From NCBI GenBank assembly GCA_965658725.1, contig CBFHUI010000001.1, forward strand, positions 16,567-80,566: 64,000 nucleotides of DNA, written 5' to 3'. Below the pieces are notes generated by a model. It did not search any database. It was not told the DNA's origin and was given only the letters and a program-made list of their open reading frames with translations. Below are positions 5,086 to 55,833 of the stretch, in pieces. Source of the DNA: Alphaproteobacteria bacterium. GTDB taxonomy: Bacteria > Pseudomonadota > Alphaproteobacteria > UBA7985. The position numbers and the translations under genes are program-made. How positions within the stretch are numbered: position 1 is the stretch's first letter; each line of letters starts with the position of its first letter.

Positions 5086-6207
5086 ATGAGCCATGTCTCC
5101 CGCTCGGACACGTCGCTGATTGGACGTTGGTGGTGGACCGTTGACCGCCCGACCATCTTTATTGTTCTGGCGCTGCTCTCGCTGGGCGCCCTGTTGTCTT
5201 TTTCGGCCTCGCCTGCCATGGCTGAGCGTCTGAACCTCGAAGCCTTCTTCTTCGTCAAGCGCCACCTGATTTTCCTGCTGCCGTCTGTAGCGCTGCTGTT
5301 TGGGCTGAGCCTGTTCAGTCCCGTGTGGATTTGGCGGCTTTGCCTTGTGGGCGTGATCGGCGGGTTTGCCGCGATGATTCTGACCCTCTACGTCGGTGAA
5401 GCGGTCAAAGGCGCCGAGCGGTGGATTGACCTTGGCGTGGTGAAAATCCAGCCCTCTGAATTCATGAAGCCCGCCTTCTTTGTCATTTCCGCGTGGTTGT
5501 TCGCGCTGCATCGGCGCATGGGACAGAGCTGGGCACTCCCGGTTAATGCGGCCATGCTGGTCGGTATGCTGACGCTGCTCATCCTGCAAAAGGATCTGGG
5601 TCAGTCGGTTTTGTTTGCCTCCGTTTGGGCCATCCAGCTGTTTCTGGCGGGCTACCCGCTGCAGTGGATGTTTGGTCTGGCGGGTCTGGGCATCGGTGGC
5701 CTCGTTGGGGCTTACAACTTTATGCCGCACGTCAAAAACCGGGTGAACCAGTTCCTCGACCCCAACGCCGACCGCTATCAAATCGATCGCGCAGCACAGG
5801 CGTTTAACGATGGGGGATGGCTGGGCGTGGGACCGGGGGAAGGCAAGGTGAAGAACGCCATCCCCGACGTGCACAATGACTTCATCTTCTCCGTGCTCGG
5901 GGAAGAGTTCGGGCTGATCGCCTGCGTATGCGTGGTGCTGATTTTTGCGCTGCTGGTGTTGCGCGGCATTGGTCAGGCGGTGCGGTTTGACAGTCTGTTC
6001 ACTTCGCTGGTTGCTCTGGGGCTGATTTGCCAACTGGGCCTGCAGGCGATGATTAACATGGCTTCCACCCTCGCCATGATCCCGACCAAGGGCATGACCC
6101 TGCCGTTTCTCAGCTACGGTGGCTCCTCGCTGCTTTCACTGGCGGTTTCAATGGGCATCTTCCTCGCTGTCACCCGACGGCGGCCCCGGCAAGAGAGTTT
6201 CCTATGA
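5086..6207 (+). CDS. ftsW: SEDS-family peptidoglycan glycosyltransferase FtsW
   Basis: 10-TM FtsW/RodA-like protein located between murD and murG, with a 4-bp overlap onto murG. Confidence 0.85.
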   Translation: MSHVSRSDTSLIGRWWWTVDRPTIFIVLALLSLGALLSFSASPAMAERLNLEAFFFVKRHLIFLLPSVALLFGLSLFSPVWIWRLCLVGVIGGFAAMILTLYVGEAVKGAERWIDLGVVKIQPSEFMKPAFFVISAWLFALHRRMGQSWALPVNAAMLVGMLTLLILQKDLGQSVLFASVWAIQLFLAGYPLQWMFGLAGLGIGGLVGAYNFMPHVKNRVNQFLDPNADRYQIDRAAQAFNDGGWLGVGPGEGKVKNAIPDVHNDFIFSVLGEEFGLIACVCVVLIFALLVLRGIGQAVRFDSLFTSLVALGLICQLGLQAMINMASTLAMIPTKGMTLPFLSYGGSSLLSLAVSMGIFLAVTRRRPRQESFL

Positions 6208-7286
6208 GCCTCATCGTCCTCGCAGCAGGCGGCACCGGCGGGCACGTTTTCCCCGCCATGGCCCTGTCCCGTGCCCTGATCGCACGCGGGCATGAGGTCC
6301 GGTTGCTGACCGATGCGCGCGGGTTGCAGTACGCGGGCGACTTCGACCCCGATGCCATTGACGTGATTTCCGCAGGCGGGCTGGTCTCTGGCGCGCCGCT
6401 CCGGCGCTTGGCAGGCGTCCTGCGCCTGCTCAATGGGTATCGACAGGCACGTGGGCATCTGCGGCGCTTGAAGCCAGCGGCCGTTGTCGGCTTTGGCGGC
6501 TTCCCGTCTGCCCCGCCCATGGTTGCCGCCCAGCACATGGGCATTCCCACGCTCATGCACGAACAGAATGGCGTCATGGGCCGCGCCAACGTCTTTGTCG
6601 CGCGCGGCGTCCGGCAGATCTCAGCCGCTTTCCCCGACGTCGATTGCGTCCCCAACGCCGCGCAGCACAAGGTCCACGTGGTCGGCAACCCAATACGGGC
6701 CGATATCGCGGCGGTAGGCGAAACAGAGTTCAAGCCTTCTGCCAATGCGTTGCGCTTGTTCGTGTTTGGCGGTTCCCAGGGAGCGGCCGTGTTTGCCCGC
6801 CTGATCCCCGATGCGCTGGAACAGCTGAGCGATGAAGCACGCGCGCGGATCAGCCTGACCATCCAGATCCGTGAAGAAAACCACGCTGCTGCTGAGCCGC
6901 GCTTGAGCGCTCTGGGACTACAGCACCTCACCATCGCCCCCTTCTTCGCCGACATGCCCCAGCAGCTCACCGACGCCGACGTCATCGTGAGCCGCTCCGG
7001 CGCAACGACGGTGCACGAAATCGCAGCTGCGGGGCGTCCGGCGATCTTTGTACCGCTCGCTGTACACAAGGATGACCAGCAGGCCCGGAACGCCCGCCTG
7101 CTCACCCAGCCCGGTGCAGCCTTCCTAGTCCGCGAAGGAGAAAGCGCAGCAGTTGAACTTGCCTCGCATTTGACAAAAATACTCAATACGCCATCCCTGC
7201 TGTCAGACATGGCATTCCGCGCACGAGCGAGCGCTTTGCTCGGCGCTGCGGACAAGCTGGCGCTCATGGTCGAGCAGGAGATATAA
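6204..7286 (+). CDS. murG: undecaprenyldiphospho-muramoylpentapeptide beta-N-acetylglucosaminyltransferase
   Basis: N-terminal [13 protein letters not shown] motif of MurG. dcw position. Confidence 0.9.
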
Positions 7287-46194: not shown

Positions 46195-49100
46195 TTATTC
46201 GAACGGATTGATCTCTTCATCCGGGCGCTGGCTTGGCGCTCGTGCGCCTTCGCCGAAGACAGACTGAAGCGTCGGCTCTTCCCCGCCTGCACCGTTTTCG
46301 ATCACGTTGCTCTGGCGCAAGTCTACGTTCAGACACAGCGCACGGAGTTCCTTGATCAGAACGTTGAAGGATTCAGGGATACCGGCTTCAAAGTTGTCGT
46401 CGCCGCGGACGATGGATTCGTACACCTTGGTACGACCCGCCACGTCATCCGACTTCACCGTCAGCATTTCCTGCAGCGTGTAAGCGGCACCGTAGGCCTG
46501 GAGCGCCCAAACCTCCATCTCACCGAAACGCTGACCGCCGAACTGGGCCTTACCGCCCAGTGGCTGCTGCGTTACCAGCGAGTAGGGGCCGATCGAACGC
46601 GCGTGGATCTTGTCGTCCACCAGGTGATGCAGCTTGAGCAGGTACTTGTAGCCCACGGTCACAGGGCGGTCGAAAGGATCGCCGGTCCGGCCGTCGTAGA
46701 GCTGCACCTGACCCGAGCCATCAAGACCCGCGTACTCCAGCATCTTCACGATGTCGGTTTCTTTAGCACCATCGAACACTGGCGTTGCGAACGGCACACC
46801 CGAGGTCACGTTACCCGCGATTTCGAGCTTGTCGCTCTCTTCGAGGCCTTCGAGCTCCTCCGGGTCGTAGACATCCGACAGGCGCTGGTTGATTTCAGCC
46901 ATCGCCCCTTCGCGGCCCATCTTGTAAGCCCGCAGCGCATCGCCAATTTGGCGACCAATGCCCCGCGCGGCCCAGCCGAGGTGGGTTTCGAGGATCTGAC
47001 CAATGTTCATCCGCGATGGAACGCCCAGCGGGTTCAGAACGATGTCAACCGGCGTACCGTCTTCAAGGAACGGCATGTCTTCGGACGGATTGATCTTGGA
47101 GATCACACCCTTGTTGCCGTGACGCCCGGCCATCTTGTCGCCCGGCTGCAGCTTACGCTTCACCGCGACGTAGACCTTGACCATCTTCAGCACGCCCGGT
47201 GGCAGTTCGTCACCGCGCTGGATCTTCTCGACTTTGTCTTCGAACCAACGCTGGATCACGTCCACCTGGTCGTCGAACTCCTGACGCAGGTTCTCCAGAA
47301 CCTTCATCGCCTCGTCGTTCTCAACGGCAATCTGCCGCCACTGACCCGGCGTGAATTGGCCCAAGATGCCTTCGTCGATCGCTGCACCCTTCTGGATGCC
47401 TTCCGGACCGTCCTGCACGACCTGCCCCATGAGCACGTCTTTCAGGCGGGAGTAGAAGGACCGCTCGATGATCGCGCGCTCGTCGTCGCGGTCTTTGGCG
47501 AGGGTTTCGATTTCCTGACGCTCAATCGCCAACGCACGCTCATCCTTGTCCACGCCACGGCGGGAGAAGACGCGAACGTCAACGATGGTACCAACAGCAC
47601 CCGGAGGCAGGCGCAGCGAGCTGTCGCGCACGTCAGAGGCTTTCTCACCGAAGATCGCCCGCAGGAGCTTTTCTTCAGGCGTCATCGGGCTCTCACCCTT
47701 TGGCGTCACTTTACCAATCAGAATGTCGCCCGGCTGCACTTCCGCACCGACGTACACAATGCCAGCCTCATCGAGGTTGCGCAGCGCGTCTTCGCCGACG
47801 TTTGGAATGTCGCGAGTGATTTCTTCAGGGCCGAGTTTGGTATCACGCGCCATGACTTCGTATTCATCGATGTGGATCGAAGTGAAAACGTCGTCGCGCA
47901 CGATGCGCTCGTTGATGAGGATGGAGTCCTCGAAGTTGTAACCCTGCCACGGCATGAAGGCCACGAGCACGTTCCGGCCCAGCGCCAGTTCGCCAAGGTG
48001 CGTGGACGGACCATCAGCGATGATGTCGCCCTTCTCCACCCGATCGCCGACCTTTACCAGCGGACGCTGGATGATACAGGTAGACTGGTTGGAGCGCTGG
48101 AACTTGGACAGGCGGTAGATTTCAACGCCAGTCTCAGTGTCGGTCGCGAAGTCCATTTCCCGGATCACGATACGGCCCGCGTCCACCTGATCAATCACAC
48201 CCGAGCGGCGTGCGATCACGGTTGCGCCGGAATCCCGGGCAACGGTGGCTTCCATGCCGGTTCCCACGAAGGGAGCCTCTGCACGGATAAGCGGAACCGC
48301 CTGACGCATCATGTTCGAGCCCATCAGAGCACGGTTTGCATCGTCGTTCTGCAGGAATGGCACCAGCGATGCTGCCACGGAGACCAGCTGCTTTGGCGAG
48401 ACGTCGATCAGATCAACGTCAGTCGGCAGGGCCACCACGAATTCACCGTTCGACCGTGCAGTCACAAGGTCTTCGGTCAGGAAATTCTTCGCATCGATCG
48501 GCGCGTTGGCTTGAGCGACGGTATAGCGCTGCTCTTCCATCGCAGAGAGGTAGACCACTTCGTCGGTGACCTGACCCTTGGACACTTTGCGGTAAGGAGA
48601 CTCAATGAAACCGTACTGGTTCACCCGGGCGTAAGTCGCCAGCGAGTTGATGAGACCAATGTTCGGGCCTTCCGGGGTTTCGATCGGGCAGATCCGGCCG
48701 TAGTGCGTCGGGTGCACGTCGCGGACTTCAAAGCCCGCACGCTCCCGCGTCAGACCGCCTGGCCCAAGCGCCGACAAACGACGCTTGTGCGTAATCTCTG
48801 AAAGCGGGTTGGTCTGGTCCATGAACTGCGAGAGCTGGGACGAGCCAAAGAACTCACGCACCGCAGCCGCAGCGGGCTTGGCGTTAATCACGTCCTGCGG
48901 CATCACCGTGTCGATATCGACCGAGGACATACGCTCCTTGATCGCGCGCTCCATGCGGAGCAAGCCGACGCGGTACTGGTTTTCCATCAGCTCACCGACA
49001 GAACGCACGCGGCGGTTGCCGAGGTTGTCGATGTCGTCGATATCGCCGCGGCCGTCTTTCATTTCAGACAGGTTGCGAACGATTTCGAGGACGTCTTCCT

Positions 49101-50481
49101 TGCGCAGCACGCGCAGGGTGTCTTCCGTATCGAACAGCTCACGGTCAGCATCGCGAGCGGTCGCGGCCAGACGCATGTTCATTTTCACCCGGCCAACAGC
49201 CGACAGGTCAAAACGCTCTTCATCGAAGAACAGGCCAGAGAACAGCGCTTCAGCGGTTTCCAGCGTTGGCGGCTCGCCCGGGCGCATGACACGGTAGATG
49301 TCGATCAGTGCTTCTTCGCGGGTCGCATTCTTGTCAACGGCCAGCGTATTCCGAATGTAAGCACCGCGGTTGAGGTGATCGATGTCGAGGGTGTCGAGCG
49401 TGGTAACGCCTTTTTCCAGCAGCTCTTCGAGCAGTGCTTCCGACAACTCGTCGCCCGCCTCAGCCCAGACCAGACCGGTCTTTTTGTCAAAGGCATCGGA
49501 CGCGAGGTAGCGGCCAATCACGTCTTCGCGGCTGACGAGCAGCTGCGTGACGGTCTCGGCCAGCTTCTTGGCTTTGCGTGGGGTGATCTTATCGCCCGCC
49601 TTCGCAACGACTTCACCGTCTGCGGCGTTGACCAGATCGTCCACCAGCTTCTTGCCGGAGTATTGCGTTGCGTCAAAGGCTGTGCGGAACTGACCGTCGC
49701 CCGCAACCTCAAAGGAAATGCGGTCGTAGATCAGGCCGAGGATTTCTTCGCGGCTCATGCCAGTCGCTTGGAACGGCGCCAGCGACTTGCCTTCTGCCGC
49801 CGCTTCCGCACGCTCACCGGCGGTGTGCTTGGAATCCAGCGCCATCAGCAAGGTCGTGGCCGGCAGCTTCCGTCGGCGGTCGATGCGGACGTACAGCAGG
49901 TCTTTCGCATCGAATTCGAAGTCCAGCCAGGAACCGCGGTACGGGATCACCCGTGCGGAGAACAGCAGCTTACCCGAGGAATGCGACTTGCCTCGGTCGT
50001 GGTCAAAGAACACGCCGGGGGAGCGGTGCATCTGGGAAACGATCACGCGCTCCGTGCCGTTCACGATAAAGGTACCGTGGTCGGTCATCAGCGGCATGTC
50101 GCCCATGTAGACGTCTTGCTCCTTGATGTCGCGGACCGAACGAGAGCCGGTGTCTTCGTCAACGTCCCAGACCACCAGCCGCAGCGTCACTTTCAGCGGC
50201 GCGGCAAAGGTCAGGCCGCGCGACATGCACTCGTCCTCGTCGTACTTCGGCGACTCAAGTTCGTAGCGGACGAACTGCAGCTCGGAACGATCGGAGAAGT
50301 CTTTGATCGGGAAAACCGACTTGAACACTTCTTCCAGACCGGAAGTACCGGCGTCAGGCTTCTGCAGGAAACCGTCGTAAGAAGCGCGCTGCACTTCAAT
50401 CAGGTTCGGCATCTGGACCGCTTCGCGGATACGGCCAAAGGACTTCCGGATGCGTTTCCGCTCGGTAAACGACTTACCCAT
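46195..50481 (-). CDS. rpoB: DNA-directed RNA polymerase subunit beta
   Basis: N-terminus [18 protein letters not shown]...[10 protein letters not shown] plus conserved beta regions. 1428 aa. Confidence 0.95.
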
Positions 50482-50839: not shown

Positions 50840-51205
50840 CTAACGCACGTCCGCGCCGCGCTCGACAGAGTCGGCGACCATGGCGAGCAGGCTTTCGCGG
50901 TATGTCTCTATCAGCTCGACGGAAGAGCATTTGACGTGCCGCAAGTCCTTTCCCGTTCCTTCCAGCAGCCCCTTTGGATTGCTCAAGTGTGCACCGTTAA
51001 AGAACTGAAGATTAACCCGCGCCTTAAGCGGAATCAGCGCGATCAGGTTCTCCGTCCCACGGTGAAACATCAGCTGCCCCCACTTGATGCTTTCGTCCAG
51101 AGCCGGCGCGCCGACCCCCTCCTTCACCAGCTCATAGAGGGCGTCGTAAAGGGGTTGGTGCTCATCTGGGACTTTGGCACGAGCAGCGGTGTAGGCGTGA
51201 GACAT
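50840..51205 (-). CDS. DUF1801 (YdhG-like) domain protein
   Basis: 121-aa protein matching the YdhG/DUF1801 pattern (IKWGQLMF..., LIALIPLKARVNLQFFNG). Confidence 0.5.
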   Translation of the reverse strand: MSHAYTAARAKVPDEHQPLYDALYELVKEGVGAPALDESIKWGQLMFHRGTENLIALIPLKARVNLQFFNGAHLSNPKGLLEGTGKDLRHVKCSSVELIETYRESLLAMVADSVERGADVR

Positions 51206-51213
51206 GGACGTGC

Positions 51214-52308
51214 TTACTTTCGTAACAGCGGGAACAGTGGCGGCGGCGGTTTGCGATGCCCGTGCTTGCCCTTGGGCGGATGCTTGTGGGGGCGATCCTT
51301 GCCCAGCCCTTTGCGGCCTGGTCCCCGGAACGGCCCGCGTGGACTGTTCGACGGCAATACGCGGCCTGAAATCTGGAACAAACCGCCGCGCCGCTCGAAC
51401 CGACCATGGAGCCGCGCGCGCAAACCTCGCTCGCCCGGTTCCGCCTGTCCGATTATGCCCGGCACCGACACCGCATGACCGTCGATGATGAGCACGCCAT
51501 CTTCACCGCCGGGCAACCCAGCAAGCACCAGATCATTCACTCTCGCAGGCTCAAAAACGCTCAGCGGTCGGGTGATGATGTCGCGTGCCTGAATCACAGA
51601 CGCACCGTCGGTTGCGATCAACAGCGGCCCCTGCACCGTCGCGCGCGTTCCGGTCTGCAGAACCTGATCACCGGTCAGCGCCACCCGAACCCCCGCCACC
51701 CGACCGTCCGAGGTAACAGGGCCAGTGACGACCGCGTCCCGTCCGTCAGTCGGCTCAACATGGGCGGCCTGGATCGTGCCGCGATGATCACGCAGCCCGG
51801 TCACCACGACCCATGCACGCGGCAGCAGTCCACTCGCATCGGTGAGTTCTGAAAGTTCAACCTGCTGGCCCAGAACGCGCAAAAGGGTGCGGCTACGCCC
51901 GGTTTCGACGGCCTCGACTGGACCAACAAGCGCGAAAGTCGCGTCGATCCGCGTGGCCTGTAGCGCCCCGTCGGCGTCGGTTACAGCCTCAACGGCAACC
52001 GTCTGCCCAAGAGCGAGATCGGATTCCTGAGCCGGTCGGCCATTCAGGGTAATGACAGCAGTCTCAGGAATTTCAACGCGCATGTCGTTGACCCAGATCG
52101 AGGAAAACCCTTCGATCAGGCCAAAGATCCCCGTGCCACCAATGCCGGCATCGATGCCGGTTCCCCCGATGCCCGCGTCAATGGTCGCATCGATGCCAGT
52201 GCCGCCGATGCCAGCCCCCGCCTGCCCCCACCCAGCTCGGGCGAGTGTCAATGAGGAGCCAGCCAACAGGGTCAGTGCACTGCGTCGCGTCAGGCGATCC
52301 CGCCTCAT
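51214..52308 (-). CDS. Tat-secreted repeat protein of unknown function (GIGGTGIDA nonapeptide repeats, three beta-rich modules, His/Lys/Pro-rich tail)
   Basis: Twin-arginine signal RRDRLTRRSALTLLAGSSLTLARA with AxA cleavage site. Three direct repeats of GIGGTGIDA. C-terminal KGLGKDRPHKHPPKGKHGHRKPPPP tail. 4-bp overlap with the upstream gene. Confidence 0.55.
   Translation of the reverse strand: MRRDRLTRRSALTLLAGSSLTLARAGWGQAGAGIGGTGIDATIDAGIGGTGIDAGIGGTGIFGLIEGFSSIWVNDMRVEIPETAVITLNGRPAQESDLALGQTVAVEAVTDADGALQATRIDATFALVGPVEAVETGRSRTLLRVLGQQVELSELTDASGLLPRAWVVVTGLRDHRGTIQAAHVEPTDGRDAVVTGPVTSDGRVAGVRVALTGDQVLQTGTRATVQGPLLIATDGASVIQARDIITRPLSVFEPARVNDLVLAGLPGGEDGVLIIDGHAVSVPGIIGQAEPGERGLRARLHGRFERRGGLFQISGRVLPSNSPRGPFRGPGRKGLGKDRPHKHPPKGKHGHRKPPPPLFPLLRK
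52123..52230 (-). repeat. in-frame nonapeptide repeat region (GIGGTGIDA x3) within the secreted protein gene
   Basis: DNA shows repeated GATGCCGGT/GATGCCAGT units encoding GIGGTGIDA-TIDA-GIGGTGIDA-GIGGTGIFG. Confidence 0.5.
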
Positions 52309-53153
52309 TCATCTGCCTCGTCTTGATAGAAGTACACCCCTATACGAACCCGCTGGCCCGCTGCATCCCCTCTCGGGTCAGCGCCTGTGTCCTCTTCTGA
52401 CGCCGCCAAAGCCGCCATATCCTGCAGCAGTGACATCCCCTTCGCCGCGATGGCCTCTCGCAGGGCAGCGGCTTGGGTGGATGAAACTCTTGGGCTGAAC
52501 ATAGCGCGTTCAAAGAAGCGATCTTCAGGCGCCGCCGAAATGTTATGCACGGCTGCGCTCAAGTGATCGCCGACGTTGGCGGCGAGGAAGCCTATGCTCT
52601 CGGTGGAATTGGCTTCGGGCAGGTAAGCAGCGGCGGTCAGCTGAAAAGTGCCGTCCTGCAGCGCTTCGACCAGTCCGGCCGCGATCAGCCCTTCAAGCAC
52701 GGATTTAGCGCGAACCTCAGGGCCGATTTCCTCGACCAGTCCGGCAAAGCTCTGCCCTCCTTCACCCCGCATGGATAGTGGCAGGGGTATGGGTCGGCCA
52801 TCGGCGTGCTGGTAGCTTTCATGTGTAGACCAGCGCGCCACTACGCGCGCCGAAGGGCTATCATGACTCGCCCGCGCCACCGGACTCGTTGCGCCGCCCG
52901 CCGCATCTGCGCGCTCGCTCAGCCAACGCGACACTTCACGGCGATGGATGCCAGTCGCGACGTGCAACGACGACGTGGTGATTTTGGACCCGCTGCGCTC
53001 GAACTGACGAAAAGCTGCCTCTAGCGTCGCGTCCCGCAGAGCGCTTTCCAACATGGCATAGGAAAGGCCCATCCGCAGACCGCCCGAGGCGAGTTCGTGC
53101 ATGAGCCGCTCGGCAGCGGCAAGATAGGCGGTTTTCGGGTCGGTTTCTGACAT
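52305..53153 (-). CDS. hypothetical cytoplasmic protein with predicted helix-turn-helix (possible regulator)
   Basis: HTH-like segment KITTSSLHVATGIHRREVSRWLSE. No signal peptide. Translationally coupled (ATGA) to the downstream secreted repeat protein. Confidence 0.5.
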   Translation of the reverse strand: MSETDPKTAYLAAAERLMHELASGGLRMGLSYAMLESALRDATLEAAFRQFERSGSKITTSSLHVATGIHRREVSRWLSERADAAGGATSPVARASHDSPSARVVARWSTHESYQHADGRPIPLPLSMRGEGGQSFAGLVEEIGPEVRAKSVLEGLIAAGLVEALQDGTFQLTAAAYLPEANSTESIGFLAANVGDHLSAAVHNISAAPEDRFFERAMFSPRVSSTQAAALREAIAAKGMSLLQDMAALAASEEDTGADPRGDAAGQRVRIGVYFYQDEADE

Positions 53154-53244
53154 GGGCCCACTGGCTCGGTTATGGGAGGCAATACGCAGCGCGATCGCCC
53201 TTTATCCCCGCCAGTCTAGGTCACTATTGAGCAAAACGCTCACG

Positions 53245-54405
53245 TTATTTCGCATCACCCGACGTCTGCGGACGCAACGCGCCGCCCAGCGCCGCCATGA
53301 CCAAGGCCAGGACAACCAGCAGCAGAAACGCCAACCGCATGGACGTCAGCTCTGCCAGTCCACCCAGAATGGGCGGGCCGAGCAGAATGCCCCCGTAGCC
53401 CAACGTAGCGACACTCGCTATCGCTGTTCCAGCGGAAACATCCTTTTGCGACGCTGCGCGGGTGAAAGCCATTGGGACAATTGTGGCGTAGCCGATGCCC
53501 ATGAGTGCAAAGCCCAGCAAGCCGAGCCAATACGATCCCGCCACCACTGCAATCAGCGCGCCCATGGCCGCAATTACACCGCTGATGCGCGTCATCAAAA
53601 CGGGCCCGAGCCGAGCGATGATTCGGTCGCCAAGCAGGCGCGTGACGACCATCATCACGGAAAACGCCGTATAGCCCAGCGCCGCCCGTGCTTCATCAAC
53701 CTGCGCGGCTTCGATCAGGAAAGTCGCGCTCCAATCCACCATTCCGCCTTCGCCAACGGTCGTGCAAAATGCCACCAAACCGACAAGGATCAGCATGCCA
53801 CGCGGCAGGGTGAACAAGGGCGCATCCGGGTTGGCTTCCGCGCGCTCTGAGGCCCAAGGGATCGCGCCGAACGGCAGGCACAGTGCGGAAAACACAACCG
53901 CAGCCAAGAAGAAATGCAGCGTGGTCCCCAGCCCCATGCTGCCCGCAACATAGCCACTCAAAGCACCTAGCCCTGTACCCAGTGAAAACATGGCGTGGAA
54001 CGACGACATGATTGGCCGTGGCGCGCGCTTTTCGACTTCGGTGGCCCACGCGTTCATGCTCACATCCATGGAGCCGTGCGCCGCGCCGAACAGGAACATT
54101 GTGGCGCCCAGCATCACCACCGAAACCGGCGTCAGAGCTATCAGGACCAGCGACAGACCATAGACTGCCGCGATCAGCCGCGTCATACGGGCCGCGCCAA
54201 AGCGGTCGGCAAAGCGCCCCGCAAGAGGAAAACTTGCCAGCGCTCCGACCGCCATTACGAGCAGCAAGATGCCGAACTGACCTTTATCGAGACTCTGATT
54301 TTCGCGGATGGTGGGAATGCGGCTGGCCCAGATGCCGAGCAACGCGCCGTTGAGCACGAACATCGCAGAGACGGCACGCCATGGGGTCAAAAGTCCTGCC
54401 AGCAC
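53245..54405 (-). CDS. MFS transporter
   Basis: 12-TM major facilitator pattern, including the GRFADRFGAARM loop motif. GTG start with GGAGGAGG Shine-Dalgarno. Confidence 0.75.
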   Translation of the reverse strand: MLAGLLTPWRAVSAMFVLNGALLGIWASRIPTIRENQSLDKGQFGILLLVMAVGALASFPLAGRFADRFGAARMTRLIAAVYGLSLVLIALTPVSVVMLGATMFLFGAAHGSMDVSMNAWATEVEKRAPRPIMSSFHAMFSLGTGLGALSGYVAGSMGLGTTLHFFLAAVVFSALCLPFGAIPWASERAEANPDAPLFTLPRGMLILVGLVAFCTTVGEGGMVDWSATFLIEAAQVDEARAALGYTAFSVMMVVTRLLGDRIIARLGPVLMTRISGVIAAMGALIAVVAGSYWLGLLGFALMGIGYATIVPMAFTRAASQKDVSAGTAIASVATLGYGGILLGPPILGGLAELTSMRLAFLLLVVLALVMAALGGALRPQTSGDAK

Positions 54406-54483: not shown

Positions 54484-54526
54484 GACAAAAAAGAAGGCGC
54501 TGCATCGTGTGATGCAGCGCCTTCTT
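54484..54526 (-). terminator. rplL terminator/attenuator hairpin (bidirectional)
   Basis: Perfect 16-bp inverted repeat AAGAAGGCGCTGCATC-GTGT-GATGCAGCGCCTTCTT, followed on the minus-strand transcript by UUUUGUC. Confidence 0.7.
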
Positions 54527-54558: not shown

Positions 54559-54942
54559 TTACTTGAGTTCGACTTCTGCGCCTGCTTCTTCCAGCTTCTT
54601 TTTGATTTCTTCAGCTTCGTCCTTGGACGCGCCTTCCTTAACAGGCTTCGGAGCACCTTCAACGAGGTCCTTCGCTTCCTTCAGGCCCAGACCGGTGATG
54701 CCGCGGACTTCCTTAATCACGTTGATCTTCTTTTCGCCAGCGGCTTTGAGGATCACGTCAAATTCAGTCTGTTCTTCACCAGCAGCAGCGCCAGCGTCAG
54801 CACCAGGTGCCATCATCATCATGCCACCAGCAGGAGCAGCAGCGGATACGCCCCACTCTTCTTCAAGCTTGGTTGCGAGTTCAGCAGCTTCCAGAACGGT
54901 GAGCTTGCCAAGTTCGGCTACGAGAGCGTCGAGATCAGCCAT
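54559..54942 (-). CDS. rplL: 50S ribosomal protein L7/L12
   Basis: [23 protein letters not shown] ... alanine-rich hinge ... C-terminal domain ending AEVELK. 127 aa. Confidence 0.92.
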
Positions 54943-55003
54943 TTTCTTTAGTTCCAATCTATCGGGATATTACGAGAATTGAGTTCAGTTGAGAGCCGCC
55001 AGA

Positions 55004-55519
55004 CTAGGCGTCTTCCTTCGCGCCATAGGCTGCGAACACGCGAGCCAGCTTTGCAGCTGGAGCGTCCACAACGCCTACGATCTTGGATGCAGGTGCATTC
55101 AGCAGACCAATGAGCTGAGCGCGCAGCTGATCGAGCGATGGCAGCTTGGCCAGCTGTTCGATCTCAGCAGCAGACAGCACTTTGCCGTCCATCGCACCGC
55201 CAAGGATTTCAATCTTGTCGAGATCCTTAGCAAACTCAGAAAGCGCCTTTGCTGGACCCACCGGCTCGTCAGAGTACGAGATCGAGGTTGGGCCGGTCAG
55301 CAAGTCACGAATGTCATCGAAAGCGCCGCCTTCAGCAGCGAGCTTTACCAGACGGTTCTTGACGACACGGTGCTTGGCACCCGCTTCACGCATCCGCGCA
55401 CGCAGGTTCTGAGCTTCAGTTACGGTCATACCGGACTGGCGAGAGACCAGTACGATAGCGCTTTCTTCGAAGGCCGACTTAAGCTCGGCGACGAGGGCTT
55501 CCTTTTCAGAACGATCCAA
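55004..55519 (-). CDS. rplJ: 50S ribosomal protein L10
   Basis: LDRSEKEALVAELK... matches the alphaproteobacterial L10 N-terminus. TTG start at 55519 preceded by a perfect GAAGGAGG Shine-Dalgarno (the ORF track extends to 55558). Confidence 0.88.
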   Translation of the reverse strand: MDRSEKEALVAELKSAFEESAIVLVSRQSGMTVTEAQNLRARMREAGAKHRVVKNRLVKLAAEGGAFDDIRDLLTGPTSISYSDEPVGPAKALSEFAKDLDKIEILGGAMDGKVLSAAEIEQLAKLPSLDQLRAQLIGLLNAPASKIVGVVDAPAAKLARVFAAYGAKEDA

Positions 55520-55833
55520 GGGAACGCCTCCTTCATTGTTGAGCCGGCTCGCACGCAAGCGCGCAGGCCAACCGGTTCGTGGTTACGACTGGACAACAAG
55601 TTTTCGGAGAAAAACGGCTTGCCCCCTGTCGCTGGCGTCTGAAACGCCCCAGGCGGCTTGGCAGTGTTCTTACTCGTCTGCGCGGGCGGTAATTAAGAGT
55701 CGTGACGACTCACCTGCGGTCTTGGACAGTCGAGCGTGGGTATAAGCCCCCGCCCGCAAGACTCAACCGCAAAGACGCTTATGCGCTTGCATGGCTGAGC
55801 CCGACCGGCTGAAGGGCTTAGGGGTTAAAGGGC
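55520..55833 (-). promoter_or_regulatory. rplJ 5' leader/promoter region (expected location of L10-leader autoregulatory RNA)
   Basis: 314-nt non-coding gap upstream of rplJ. Assigned from position only; no structure was computed. Confidence 0.3.

Follow-up and report, generated by a model that had tools for sequence, protein, structure and literature searches.

HetR, the heterocyst master regulator of filamentous cyanobacteria and an intertwined homodimer, is treated as a cyanobacteria-specific regulator. In the RNPP cassettes of Firmicutes (Rap-Phr, NprR-NprX and PlcR-PapR), TPR regulators are accompanied by small pro-peptides that are re-imported by Opp. HetR consists of a DNA-binding domain (residues 1-98), a flap (99-216) and a hood (217-299), the latter two described as novel folds, and binding of PatS6 to the hood releases DNA (PMC4649674). 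The protein binds a 17-bp inverted repeat, GAGGGGTCTAACCCCTC, as well as its own promoter (PMC4192349), and one of its inhibitors is the exported PatX, from which PatP releases the hexapeptide HRGTGR (PMC12756182). Here we describe a pair of overlapping genes in a 64-kb stretch of alphaproteobacterial DNA (assembly GCA_965658725.1, contig CBFHUI010000001.1, positions 16,567 to 80,566; the whole stretch of 64,000 nucleotides is referred to as the window, and coordinates count from its first letter). The first gene encodes a protein of the Pfam family DUF6502 and the second an exported DUF5666 protein, its partner. We consider it probable that this locus is an autoregulated bicistronic cassette, in which a HetR-like dimeric regulator, with its C-terminal domain acting as sensor, is coupled to the exported GGTG/DUF5666 protein.

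The two genes, their junction and the candidate control site were located as follows.

52305-53153, minus strand: DUF6502 gene, 282 aa (open reading frame and Pfam DUF6502)
52914-52985, minus strand: helix-turn-helix KITTSSLHVATGIHRREVSRWLSE, residues 57-80 (AlphaFold helices 60-67 and 71-86)
52551-52577, minus strand: NVGDHLSAA motif, residues 193-201, in the C-terminal helical domain (conservation)
52305-52308, minus strand: ATGA stop/start overlap of the DUF6502 and partner genes, translational coupling (read from the sequence)
51214-52308, minus strand: partner gene, exported GGTG-repeat/DUF5666 protein of 364 aa (open reading frame and Pfam DUF5666)
53227-53243: candidate operator, a 17-bp 6-5-6 palindrome, GTGAGCGTTTTGCTCAA in minus-strand letters, 74-90 nt 5' of the DUF6502 ATG

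A preliminary description, made from the sequence alone, had placed both open reading frames correctly, at the stated coordinates and with their ATGA overlap, and had rightly set them within the rpo/ribosomal cluster, where they lie between rplL and rpoB. At their junction, ...gat gaa tga is overlapped by ATG AGG CGG over 4 nt, and a Shine-Dalgarno-like GAGG is found 8 nt 5' of the partner start. The same description saw no domain beyond a helix-turn-helix in the first product and no family for either; this has to be revised, since the 282-aa protein matches DUF6502 (PF20112) at 84.6 bits against a cut-off of 27, with residues 11-279 on positions 5-262 of the 268-position profile, and the partner matches DUF5666 (PF18914, a 60-residue domain) at 42 bits against a cut-off of 27, in two stretches of which the best covers residues 69-122. 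Strong matches to well-characterised families, with no conserved co-occurrence, had been named there as a result that would speak against a new module; the hidden Markov model (HMM) searches instead led to two uncharacterised Pfam families with strong co-occurrence. No NCBIfam family was matched by either protein, and no solved structure was detectable by sequence for either of them. As listed, the entries PF20112 and PF18914 carry no function; homologues of both proteins are found under these names in public records. The DUF6502 family is large, with 5271 representatives at 50% identity (E <=1e-3), nearly all of 250-330 aa, and 2519 clusters at 90% identity among the scored candidates. In the literature searched we found no function for DUF6502 or DUF5666, the latter occurring in gene lists and expression tables only, and nothing on the GIGGTG motif or on HetR-like proteins outside cyanobacteria; the pairing, operator, recognition code, GGTG motif and HetR likeness were all undescribed there. 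While the DUF names are already catalogued, the pairing, the GGTG motif of the partner, the candidate operator with its recognition code and the likeness to HetR are new here.

The DUF6502-DUF5666 pair is a tightly conserved two-gene cassette, widespread in Proteobacteria. A scan of one genome per species, with the NVGDHLSAA motif as search pattern, gave 286 DUF6502 relatives, and 80 of these were examined; together with two metagenomic loci they make up 82 non-redundant loci from Alpha-, Beta- and Gammaproteobacteria. A DUF5666 gene was located directly 3' of DUF6502 in about 67 of the 79 informative loci, in all three classes. Of the other loci among the 82, six orthologous ones from Comamonadaceae have a different lipoprotein, three end too early to be judged and six have no partner. 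The 4-nt start/stop overlap recurs in 42 of the 64 loci with a DUF5666 partner, and even for two distant DUF6502 relatives (32-34% identity) the next gene is DUF5666 with its start overlapping the stop. In the reverse direction, all nine GGTG-DUF5666 partners checked (Bradyrhizobium elkanii, Mesorhizobium loti, Azospirillum, Hydrogenovibrio, Rhodoblastus and four metagenome-assembled genomes, MAGs) directly follow a DUF6502 gene on the same strand. The cassette is also present on Rhizobium chromids, including pRL12 of R. johnstonii 3841 (RL_RS33240 and RL_RS33235). Clustering of the neighbouring genes found no conserved third gene, just clade-specific synteny. Thus, the co-occurrence across genomes that had been proposed as a check is seen in both directions (about 67/79 forward, 9/9 reverse). 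The proposal of a regulator-effector module holds for the pair, which is conserved in both directions and has a cognate palindrome, but not for the adjacent DUF1801 gene that had been counted with it (3 of 10 clade genomes).

Some loci depart from the plain two-gene arrangement. A second DUF5666 gene occurs in several betaproteobacterial loci, either upstream of DUF6502 (L001, L051, L068, L078 and L081) or downstream (L028 and L057), where the extra copies stand in tandem behind the first partner. In L051 and L078 the palindrome stands before the copy upstream of DUF6502, pointing to an operon of three genes. An outer-membrane-barrel-like third gene was confined to a few gammaproteobacterial loci. 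In Hydrogenovibrio (L090, 5933-6700) and in a MAG locus (L174, 5015-6409), the partner is followed by a gene for a protein with a signal peptide, the L174 product ending in an aromatic residue as outer-membrane beta-barrels do and the L090 product having no Pfam match. This protein may be an accessory component of surface export. Orphan DUF6502 genes with no adjacent partner are those of L023, L054 and L075 (Lentibacter, Roseovarius) and of L048, L058 and L074. Those from Rhodobacterales make up a subgroup whose recognition helix is of the QRRD type and whose palindromes read ATGTGT; two of them have greA downstream.

The second line of evidence is a 17-bp palindrome in front of the cassette, in the 250 nt 5' of DUF6502. 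It has 6-bp arms around an A/T-rich 5-bp spacer, with the consensus GTGGGA-W5-TCCCAC and the general form xTGNNN-W5-NNNCAx. Of 87 loci, 72 have it within 260 nt upstream of DUF6502 under a strict pattern that requires xTG...CAx, tolerates no more than one arm mismatch and asks for three or more A/T in the spacer; in shuffled sequence the mean was 1.8 and the maximum 7. Its density is 4.82 per kb upstream vs 0.152 per kb elsewhere in the same loci, a 32-fold difference. The letters of the arms differ by lineage: GTGGGA-type palindromes occur in Bradyrhizobium, Mesorhizobium, Azospirillum, some Burkholderiales and Halothiobacillus, ATGTGCAAATTGCACAT in Zoogloea and its relatives, ATGGGATATATTCCCAT in Rhodoferax and Polaromonas, and GTGGGAATATTTCCCAC and GTGGAAAAATTTTCCAC at about -95 and -35 in Rhodobacterales. 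The clade of the window has GTGAGC/GTGTGC...GCNCAC palindromes in 2-3 copies. In the window itself the palindrome lies 1 nt past the stop codon of the preceding MFS transporter gene, and it is the sole match of at least 11/12 in the 64 kb.

The half-site co-varies with residues 70-73 of DUF6502, at the start of the recognition helix. An HRK[D/E] helix goes with an xTGG[G/A]A half-site in 115 of 118 cases and an H/N/T-RRE helix with xTGxGC in 51 of 56, while QRRD is found with TGTGT and SRRT with TGCGC. This relation holds across the boundaries of the proteobacterial classes, and it was borne out in loci fetched later, namely Rhodoblastus (NRRE), which has three GTGTGC palindromes, and two HRKD MAGs with two GTGGGA palindromes each. 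In the window protein the recognition helix begins H70-R71-R72-E73. The upstream position of the palindrome and its co-variation with the recognition helix make DUF6502 very probably an autoregulating dimeric transcription factor, and there is good computational evidence, drawn from sequence comparison, that DUF6502 itself, in dimeric form, would occupy the palindromes of its own promoter.

Palindromes of this kind were also noted at other positions. On the Rhizobium pRL chromids a perfect palindrome, ATGGGAAAATTTCCCAT, is found 3' of the pair and 5' of an 82-aa hypothetical open reading frame (palindrome and frame at 6903-6919 and 7068-7316 in L171, and at 5996-6012 and 6226-6474 in L172); its product is a small protein with no obvious signal peptide and contains SSGGTGR. 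Further paired GTGGGA-type palindromes are present at about 6605-6660 in L088 (Mesorhizobium loti) and about 3361-3419 in L087 (Bradyrhizobium elkanii). These extra palindromes stand before neighbouring glycosyltransferase and polysaccharide ABC-exporter genes, a hint that the regulon in Rhizobiales includes surface-polysaccharide genes.

The DUF6502 protein is predicted to be a soluble, acidic, three-part transcription factor with a HetR-like fold. It has no hydrophobic segment (maximum KD19 1.18) and an isoelectric point (pI) of 5.2. The helix-turn-helix segment, which had already been pointed out in the preliminary description, falls on two consecutive helices of the AlphaFold model and is the best-conserved stretch of the family, with S61, G68 and R71 invariant and A66, T67, R72, E73, V74 and R76 nearly so. 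Two AlphaFold2 models were made, one from 14 sequences with a mean predicted local distance difference test score (pLDDT) of 65, and one from 59 diverse sequences, with no templates, that reached a pLDDT of 83 and a predicted template-modelling (TM) score of 0.65. In the model, an N-terminal part of four helices including the helix-turn-helix (residues 1-86) is followed by a linker, a winged-helix-like helix-helix-hairpin domain (100-175) and a C-terminal domain of two long helices. The latter carries the NVGDHLSAA motif, in which N193, G195, H197 and A201 are invariant over 59 diverse sequences, and this region is a candidate signal-receiving site. When the better model was compared with the Protein Data Bank (PDB) by Foldseek, the top six matches were all HetR (E 2.3e-4, probability 1.0, about 317 columns, TM-score 0.35-0.37), and the top matches of the poorer model were HetR as well. 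Judging from the models, DUF6502 is predicted to resemble HetR in architecture and DNA-binding geometry, and common descent of the two is plausible, with the chances about even.

Several observations weigh against the cassette being an autoregulated, HetR-like unit. As to the fold, the TM-scores to HetR lie below 0.4. The Pfam families Peptidase_S48 and HetR_C are unmatched by the DUF6502 protein at E up to 1, and in the Pfam scan HetR matches these two families and not DUF6502. Comparisons by hhalign of a DUF6502 profile with HetR, and of 209 DUF6502 with 81 metagenomic HetR sequences, gave probabilities of 0.1-0.3%, the HetR alignment being of very low diversity (effective number of sequences, Neff, 1.6); sequence similarity between the two families was thus undetectable. 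As to the operator, no upstream palindrome was detected in 15 of the 87 loci, the perfect palindrome of Rhizobium sits downstream of the pair, and the window holds just one, imperfect copy within 91 nt 5' of DUF6502, whereas its clade relatives have about 700 nt and 2-3 palindromes. The palindromes could also be bound by another factor. In addition, six loci hold DUF6502 with no partner.

The partner has a pI of 10.2, and 186 homologues of it were retrieved. It is composed of the following parts.

52234-52308, minus strand: signal peptide, residues 1-25, with twin-arginine-like TRRSAL and an ARA cleavage-type site (sequence reading)
52120-52212, minus strand: three GIGGTG motifs, residues 33-38, 46-51 and 55-60, the last running into GIFGLIEGFSSIWVN
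51931-52128, minus strand: first DUF5666 beta domain, strongly conserved, residues 61-126 (Pfam best stretch 69-122)
51217-51411, minus strand: C-terminal basic tail rich in Arg, Lys, His, Pro and Gly, residues 300-364 (composition, pI 12)

The twin-arginine signal that had been proposed for this protein is borne out at the motif level: its N-terminus, MRRDRLTRRSALTLLAGSSLTLARA, fits the consensus, and TRRSAL is kept in the partners of the window's clade. No match to a TAT_signal HMM was reported in Pfam or NCBIfam. Export of the window partner by the twin-arginine translocation (Tat) route is plausible on this reading. Twin-arginine-type signal peptides are also found in many Rhizobiales partners. 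Among 120 partners, an RR motif is present in 41 and a lipobox in 39, and many are Sec-type lipoproteins. Since the export signals vary by lineage, Tat export does not define the family. These signals bear on a different explanation, in which DUF6502 would be a dedicated chaperone or an export-coupled regulator that holds the unexported partner precursor, like a Tat proofreading chaperone or an FlgM-type switch; coupling would set the stoichiometry, and export of the partner would free the regulator. The 4-nt overlap in 42 of 64 loci, which implies a fixed stoichiometry, the inseparability of the pair in both search directions and the twin-arginine-type signals of the window's clade and of many Rhizobiales would all suit such a mechanism. 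However, the RR motif occurs in just 41 of 120 partners, and the many Sec lipoproteins cross the membrane unfolded. The conserved helix-turn-helix and the co-varying palindromes argue for DNA binding as the primary activity, six loci have DUF6502 but no partner for it to hold, and the protein has no resemblance to the TorD/DmsD or NapD families. We regard export coupling as decidedly unlikely, and prefer the autoregulated cassette.

The most constant feature of the partner is the GGTG motif behind its signal peptide. The preliminary description had reported three GIGGTGIDA nonapeptides with a period of nine. The three GIGGTG copies are there, at residues 33, 46 and 55, but their spacing is 13 and 9, and IDA follows only two of them; the third reads GIGGTGIFG and enters the first beta domain. 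The three copies differ in synonymous codons (Thr is ACT, ACC and ACG) and Tandem Repeats Finder found no DNA repeat over them, which indicates that the repeat is maintained at the protein level by selection on the peptide. G-[ILMTS]-G-G-T-G follows the signal peptide in virtually every genomic partner, and GxGGTG was present in 105 of 105 retrieved homologues, a set biased by the word-based search. In 120 homologues, also biased by the word search but in agreement with the genomic partners, the motif has 1-8 copies (mode 2) spaced 8-36 residues apart and is usually preceded by Asp-x. Over 31 diverse partners, G55, G57, G58, T59, G60, G63, F68, S70 and V73 are invariant. The last GGTG copy is continuous with GIVGxIxxFGSIxVNG, the start of the first DUF5666 domain.

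The nonapeptides had also been loosely likened to the RTX repeat (GGxGxDxUx), which would make the partner a calcium-binding secreted effector with the GIGGTGIDA units as a small beta-roll. Locally there is a likeness, as GGTGIDAGI of the window's clade fits GGxGxD and copies 2 and 3 are nine residues apart. The family as a whole differs by spacing and export route. HemolysinCabind (PF00353) is unmatched at E up to 1, the hydrophobic position is out of register, and Asp precedes the motif instead of taking the RTX position. Copies are 8-36 residues apart in the family, the majority of whose members carry two. For its export the protein has a signal peptide at the N-terminus in place of a C-terminal type 1 secretion signal, with no type 1 secretion genes nearby. 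Because of the variable spacing and the lack of a HemolysinCabind match we reject the RTX comparison, and a calcium-binding effector of this type is highly improbable.

A further possibility starts from HetR. Under feedback of the HetR-PatX type, the partner would be processed outside the cytoplasm to a GGTG peptide, possibly D-x-G-I-G-G-T-G, which would re-enter its own or adjacent cells, bind the C-terminal domain of DUF6502 and alter its DNA binding, in the manner of RG(S/T)GR peptides on HetR. The cassette would thereby serve peptide-based signalling, cell-cell or autocrine, in Gram-negative bacteria. HetR is the nearest solved fold to DUF6502, and PatX is exported and cut by PatP to HRGTGR (PMC12756182). 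The sole invariant feature of the partner, close to the N-terminus of the mature protein, is a short motif that contains Gly-Thr-Gly, and its 1-8 copies with variable spacers, usually after Asp-x, look like a multi-copy precursor. In six orthologous Comamonadaceae partners, Pfam finds no DUF5666 and only weak transthyretin/CarboxypepD_reg-like matches, yet they start with GSGGTG, so the motif persists where the rest of the partner has been replaced; this replacement counts as one independent event. The SSGGTGR of the Rhizobium 82-aa product, behind its perfect palindrome, can be added, although a GGTG match by chance has a likelihood of about 5-10% for the amount of sequence inspected. On the other hand, the last copy runs on into the first beta-strand (GIGGTGIVGxIxxFGSIxVNG), which fits a structural role, the partner is a folded protein of 300-500 aa and no small pro-peptide, GGTG differs from RG(S/T)GR, and neighbour clustering showed no conserved peptidase or peptide importer nearby. 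Feedback by such a peptide is therefore unlikely in our view, and it is equally doubtful that DUF6502 is a distant HetR relative in a proteobacterial HetR-PatX counterpart with the partner as precursor or carrier of a GGTG peptide.

In the remainder of the partner, three beta-strand-rich modules of about 60 aa had been described, which is borne out in part. The first is a strongly conserved domain, for which an HMM gives 80-96 bits in all partners, while the later repeats score weakly and are only weakly related. Sub-threshold Pfam matches to DUF5818, CcmE and a FlgD Tudor-like domain overlap the DUF5666 domains; as these are small periplasmic beta-barrel/OB-like domains, they suggest a small beta-barrel fold for DUF5666, with the likeness lying wholly below threshold. 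The His/Lys/Pro-rich basic tail stands as described, its 65 residues including 10 R, 7 K, 5 H, 12 P and 11 G. It is probably disordered; its sequence varies within the clade and it is missing from betaproteobacterial partners.

The genes around the cassette are as follows.

55004-55558, minus strand: rplJ
54559-54957, minus strand: rplL
53245-54405, minus strand: MFS transporter gene, accessory neighbour (Pfam MFS_1)
50840-51205, minus strand: DUF1801 gene, accessory neighbour outside the conserved cassette (Pfam DUF1801)
46195-50481, minus strand: rpoB

The operon junction between rplL and rpoB is normally invariant. All nine related marine alphaproteobacterial genomes that span the interval have the DUF6502-DUF5666 pair inserted there. 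The MFS gene is present in five and absent in four of the nine clade genomes in which the upstream region is covered. DUF1801 was found in three of 10 clade genomes (the window, which is counted, L007 and L008) and not in the other seven, nor was it among the conserved neighbours of DUF6502 loci outside the clade in the neighbour clustering. DUF1801 is thus outside the module, and both it and the MFS gene are clade-specific neighbours of the cassette. A promoter and terminator scan of the locus gave no sigma-70 consensus match and no convincing terminator within the cassette. Directly 3' of rplL, at 54487-54524 (minus strand), there is a strong intrinsic terminator that was unlisted by the consensus scan; it reads GAAGGCGCTGCATC-ACAC-GATGCAGCGCCTTC and then TTTTTT. 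The MFS/DUF6502/DUF5666/DUF1801 block sits between this terminator and rpoB, with 358 nt of non-coding sequence 5' of rpoB. An Rfam scan of the 64-kb window found no family at gathering score, including no ribosomal-protein leader near rplJ/rplL. In L015, a Rhodospirillaceae MAG, apparent frameshifts split DUF6502, DUF5666 and rpoB; these are probably assembly errors of a long-read MAG, not pseudogenes.

The computations show that the two genes are kept together, that a palindrome before them co-varies with the recognition helix, that the partner carries signals for export and the GGTG motif, and that the predicted fold of DUF6502 resembles that of HetR. Dimeric binding, autoregulation, be it by repression or by activation, and a signal-receiving role of the C-terminal NVGDHLSAA domain are inferred. 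In the mechanism that we propose, gene 1 (DUF6502, about 280-320 aa) would give a cytoplasmic three-part transcription factor, which would most likely sit as a dimer on the 17-bp palindromes before its own gene. Its binding would control its own transcription together with the translationally coupled gene 2, and its NVGDHLSAA domain would receive the signal. The product of gene 2 would be exported to the periplasm or cell surface, by a twin-arginine-type signal here and often as a Sec lipoprotein elsewhere, and would present an N-terminal [D-x]-G-x-G-G-T-G as its invariant feature, in 1-8 copies of which the last would lead into the first DUF5666 beta-barrel.

If this is true, a proteobacterial family of about 5000 clusters at 50% identity, with HetR-like part order and geometry and an obligatory exported partner, would provide evolutionary context for HetR. 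If the peptide feedback were true, a Gram-negative peptide signalling system of more than 5000 clusters at 50% identity would be present in model rhizobia. The analysis makes two DUF families tractable, as it offers a predicted operator, a predicted recognition code in which HRKD pairs with GGGA and NRRE with GTGC, and hosts that can be cultured, such as Rhizobium johnstonii 3841 (pRL12), Bradyrhizobium elkanii, Mesorhizobium loti and Azospirillum lipoferum. GxGGTG at the mature N-terminus of the partner is a new handle, whether it turns out to act as a signal, to be modified or to have a structural part. Should the cassette merely be a repressor of a periplasmic beta-barrel protein, the result would be a usable annotation of modest general interest.

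Compared with known systems, the cassette has the gene order of the RNPP cassettes, in which a cytoplasmic regulator is followed by an often overlapping gene for an exported product with a short conserved peptide. The regulators there are TPR proteins and the partners small pro-peptides, whereas the DUF6502 cassette shows no sign of processing or re-import. The closest solved fold to DUF6502 is that of HetR (PDB 3QOD, 4IZZ, 4J00, 4HRI and 4YRV). The two systems differ in that the DUF6502 partner is a large folded DUF5666 protein, encoded downstream and translationally coupled, and that of HetR a small peptide; in the motif, GxGGTG against RG(S/T)GR of the HetR inhibitors PatS, PatX and HetN; and in the hosts, which for DUF6502 are unicellular Proteobacteria with no heterocysts. 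No PatP-like peptidase is linked to the DUF6502 cassette. A base-by-base identity of the hetP site with GTGGGA-N5-TCCCAC was considered and rejected, since the HetR consensus has its conserved GGG one base nearer the dyad, and only the geometry is comparable. The likenesses concern size (282-320 aa for DUF6502, 299 aa for HetR), the order of an N-terminal helical DNA-binding unit, a middle domain and a C-terminal domain, and the position of the helix-turn-helix (about 57-86 in DUF6502; alpha4-alpha5, about 55-80, in HetR), with a T-G turn in both. Both target a 17-bp 6-5-6 inverted repeat with G-rich/C-rich arms, including one at the own promoter, the DUF6502 sites being predicted from sequence only. 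Finally, both are tied to an exported protein with a short Gly-(Ser/Thr)-Gly motif, which is the DUF5666 partner in the one case and PatX in the other.

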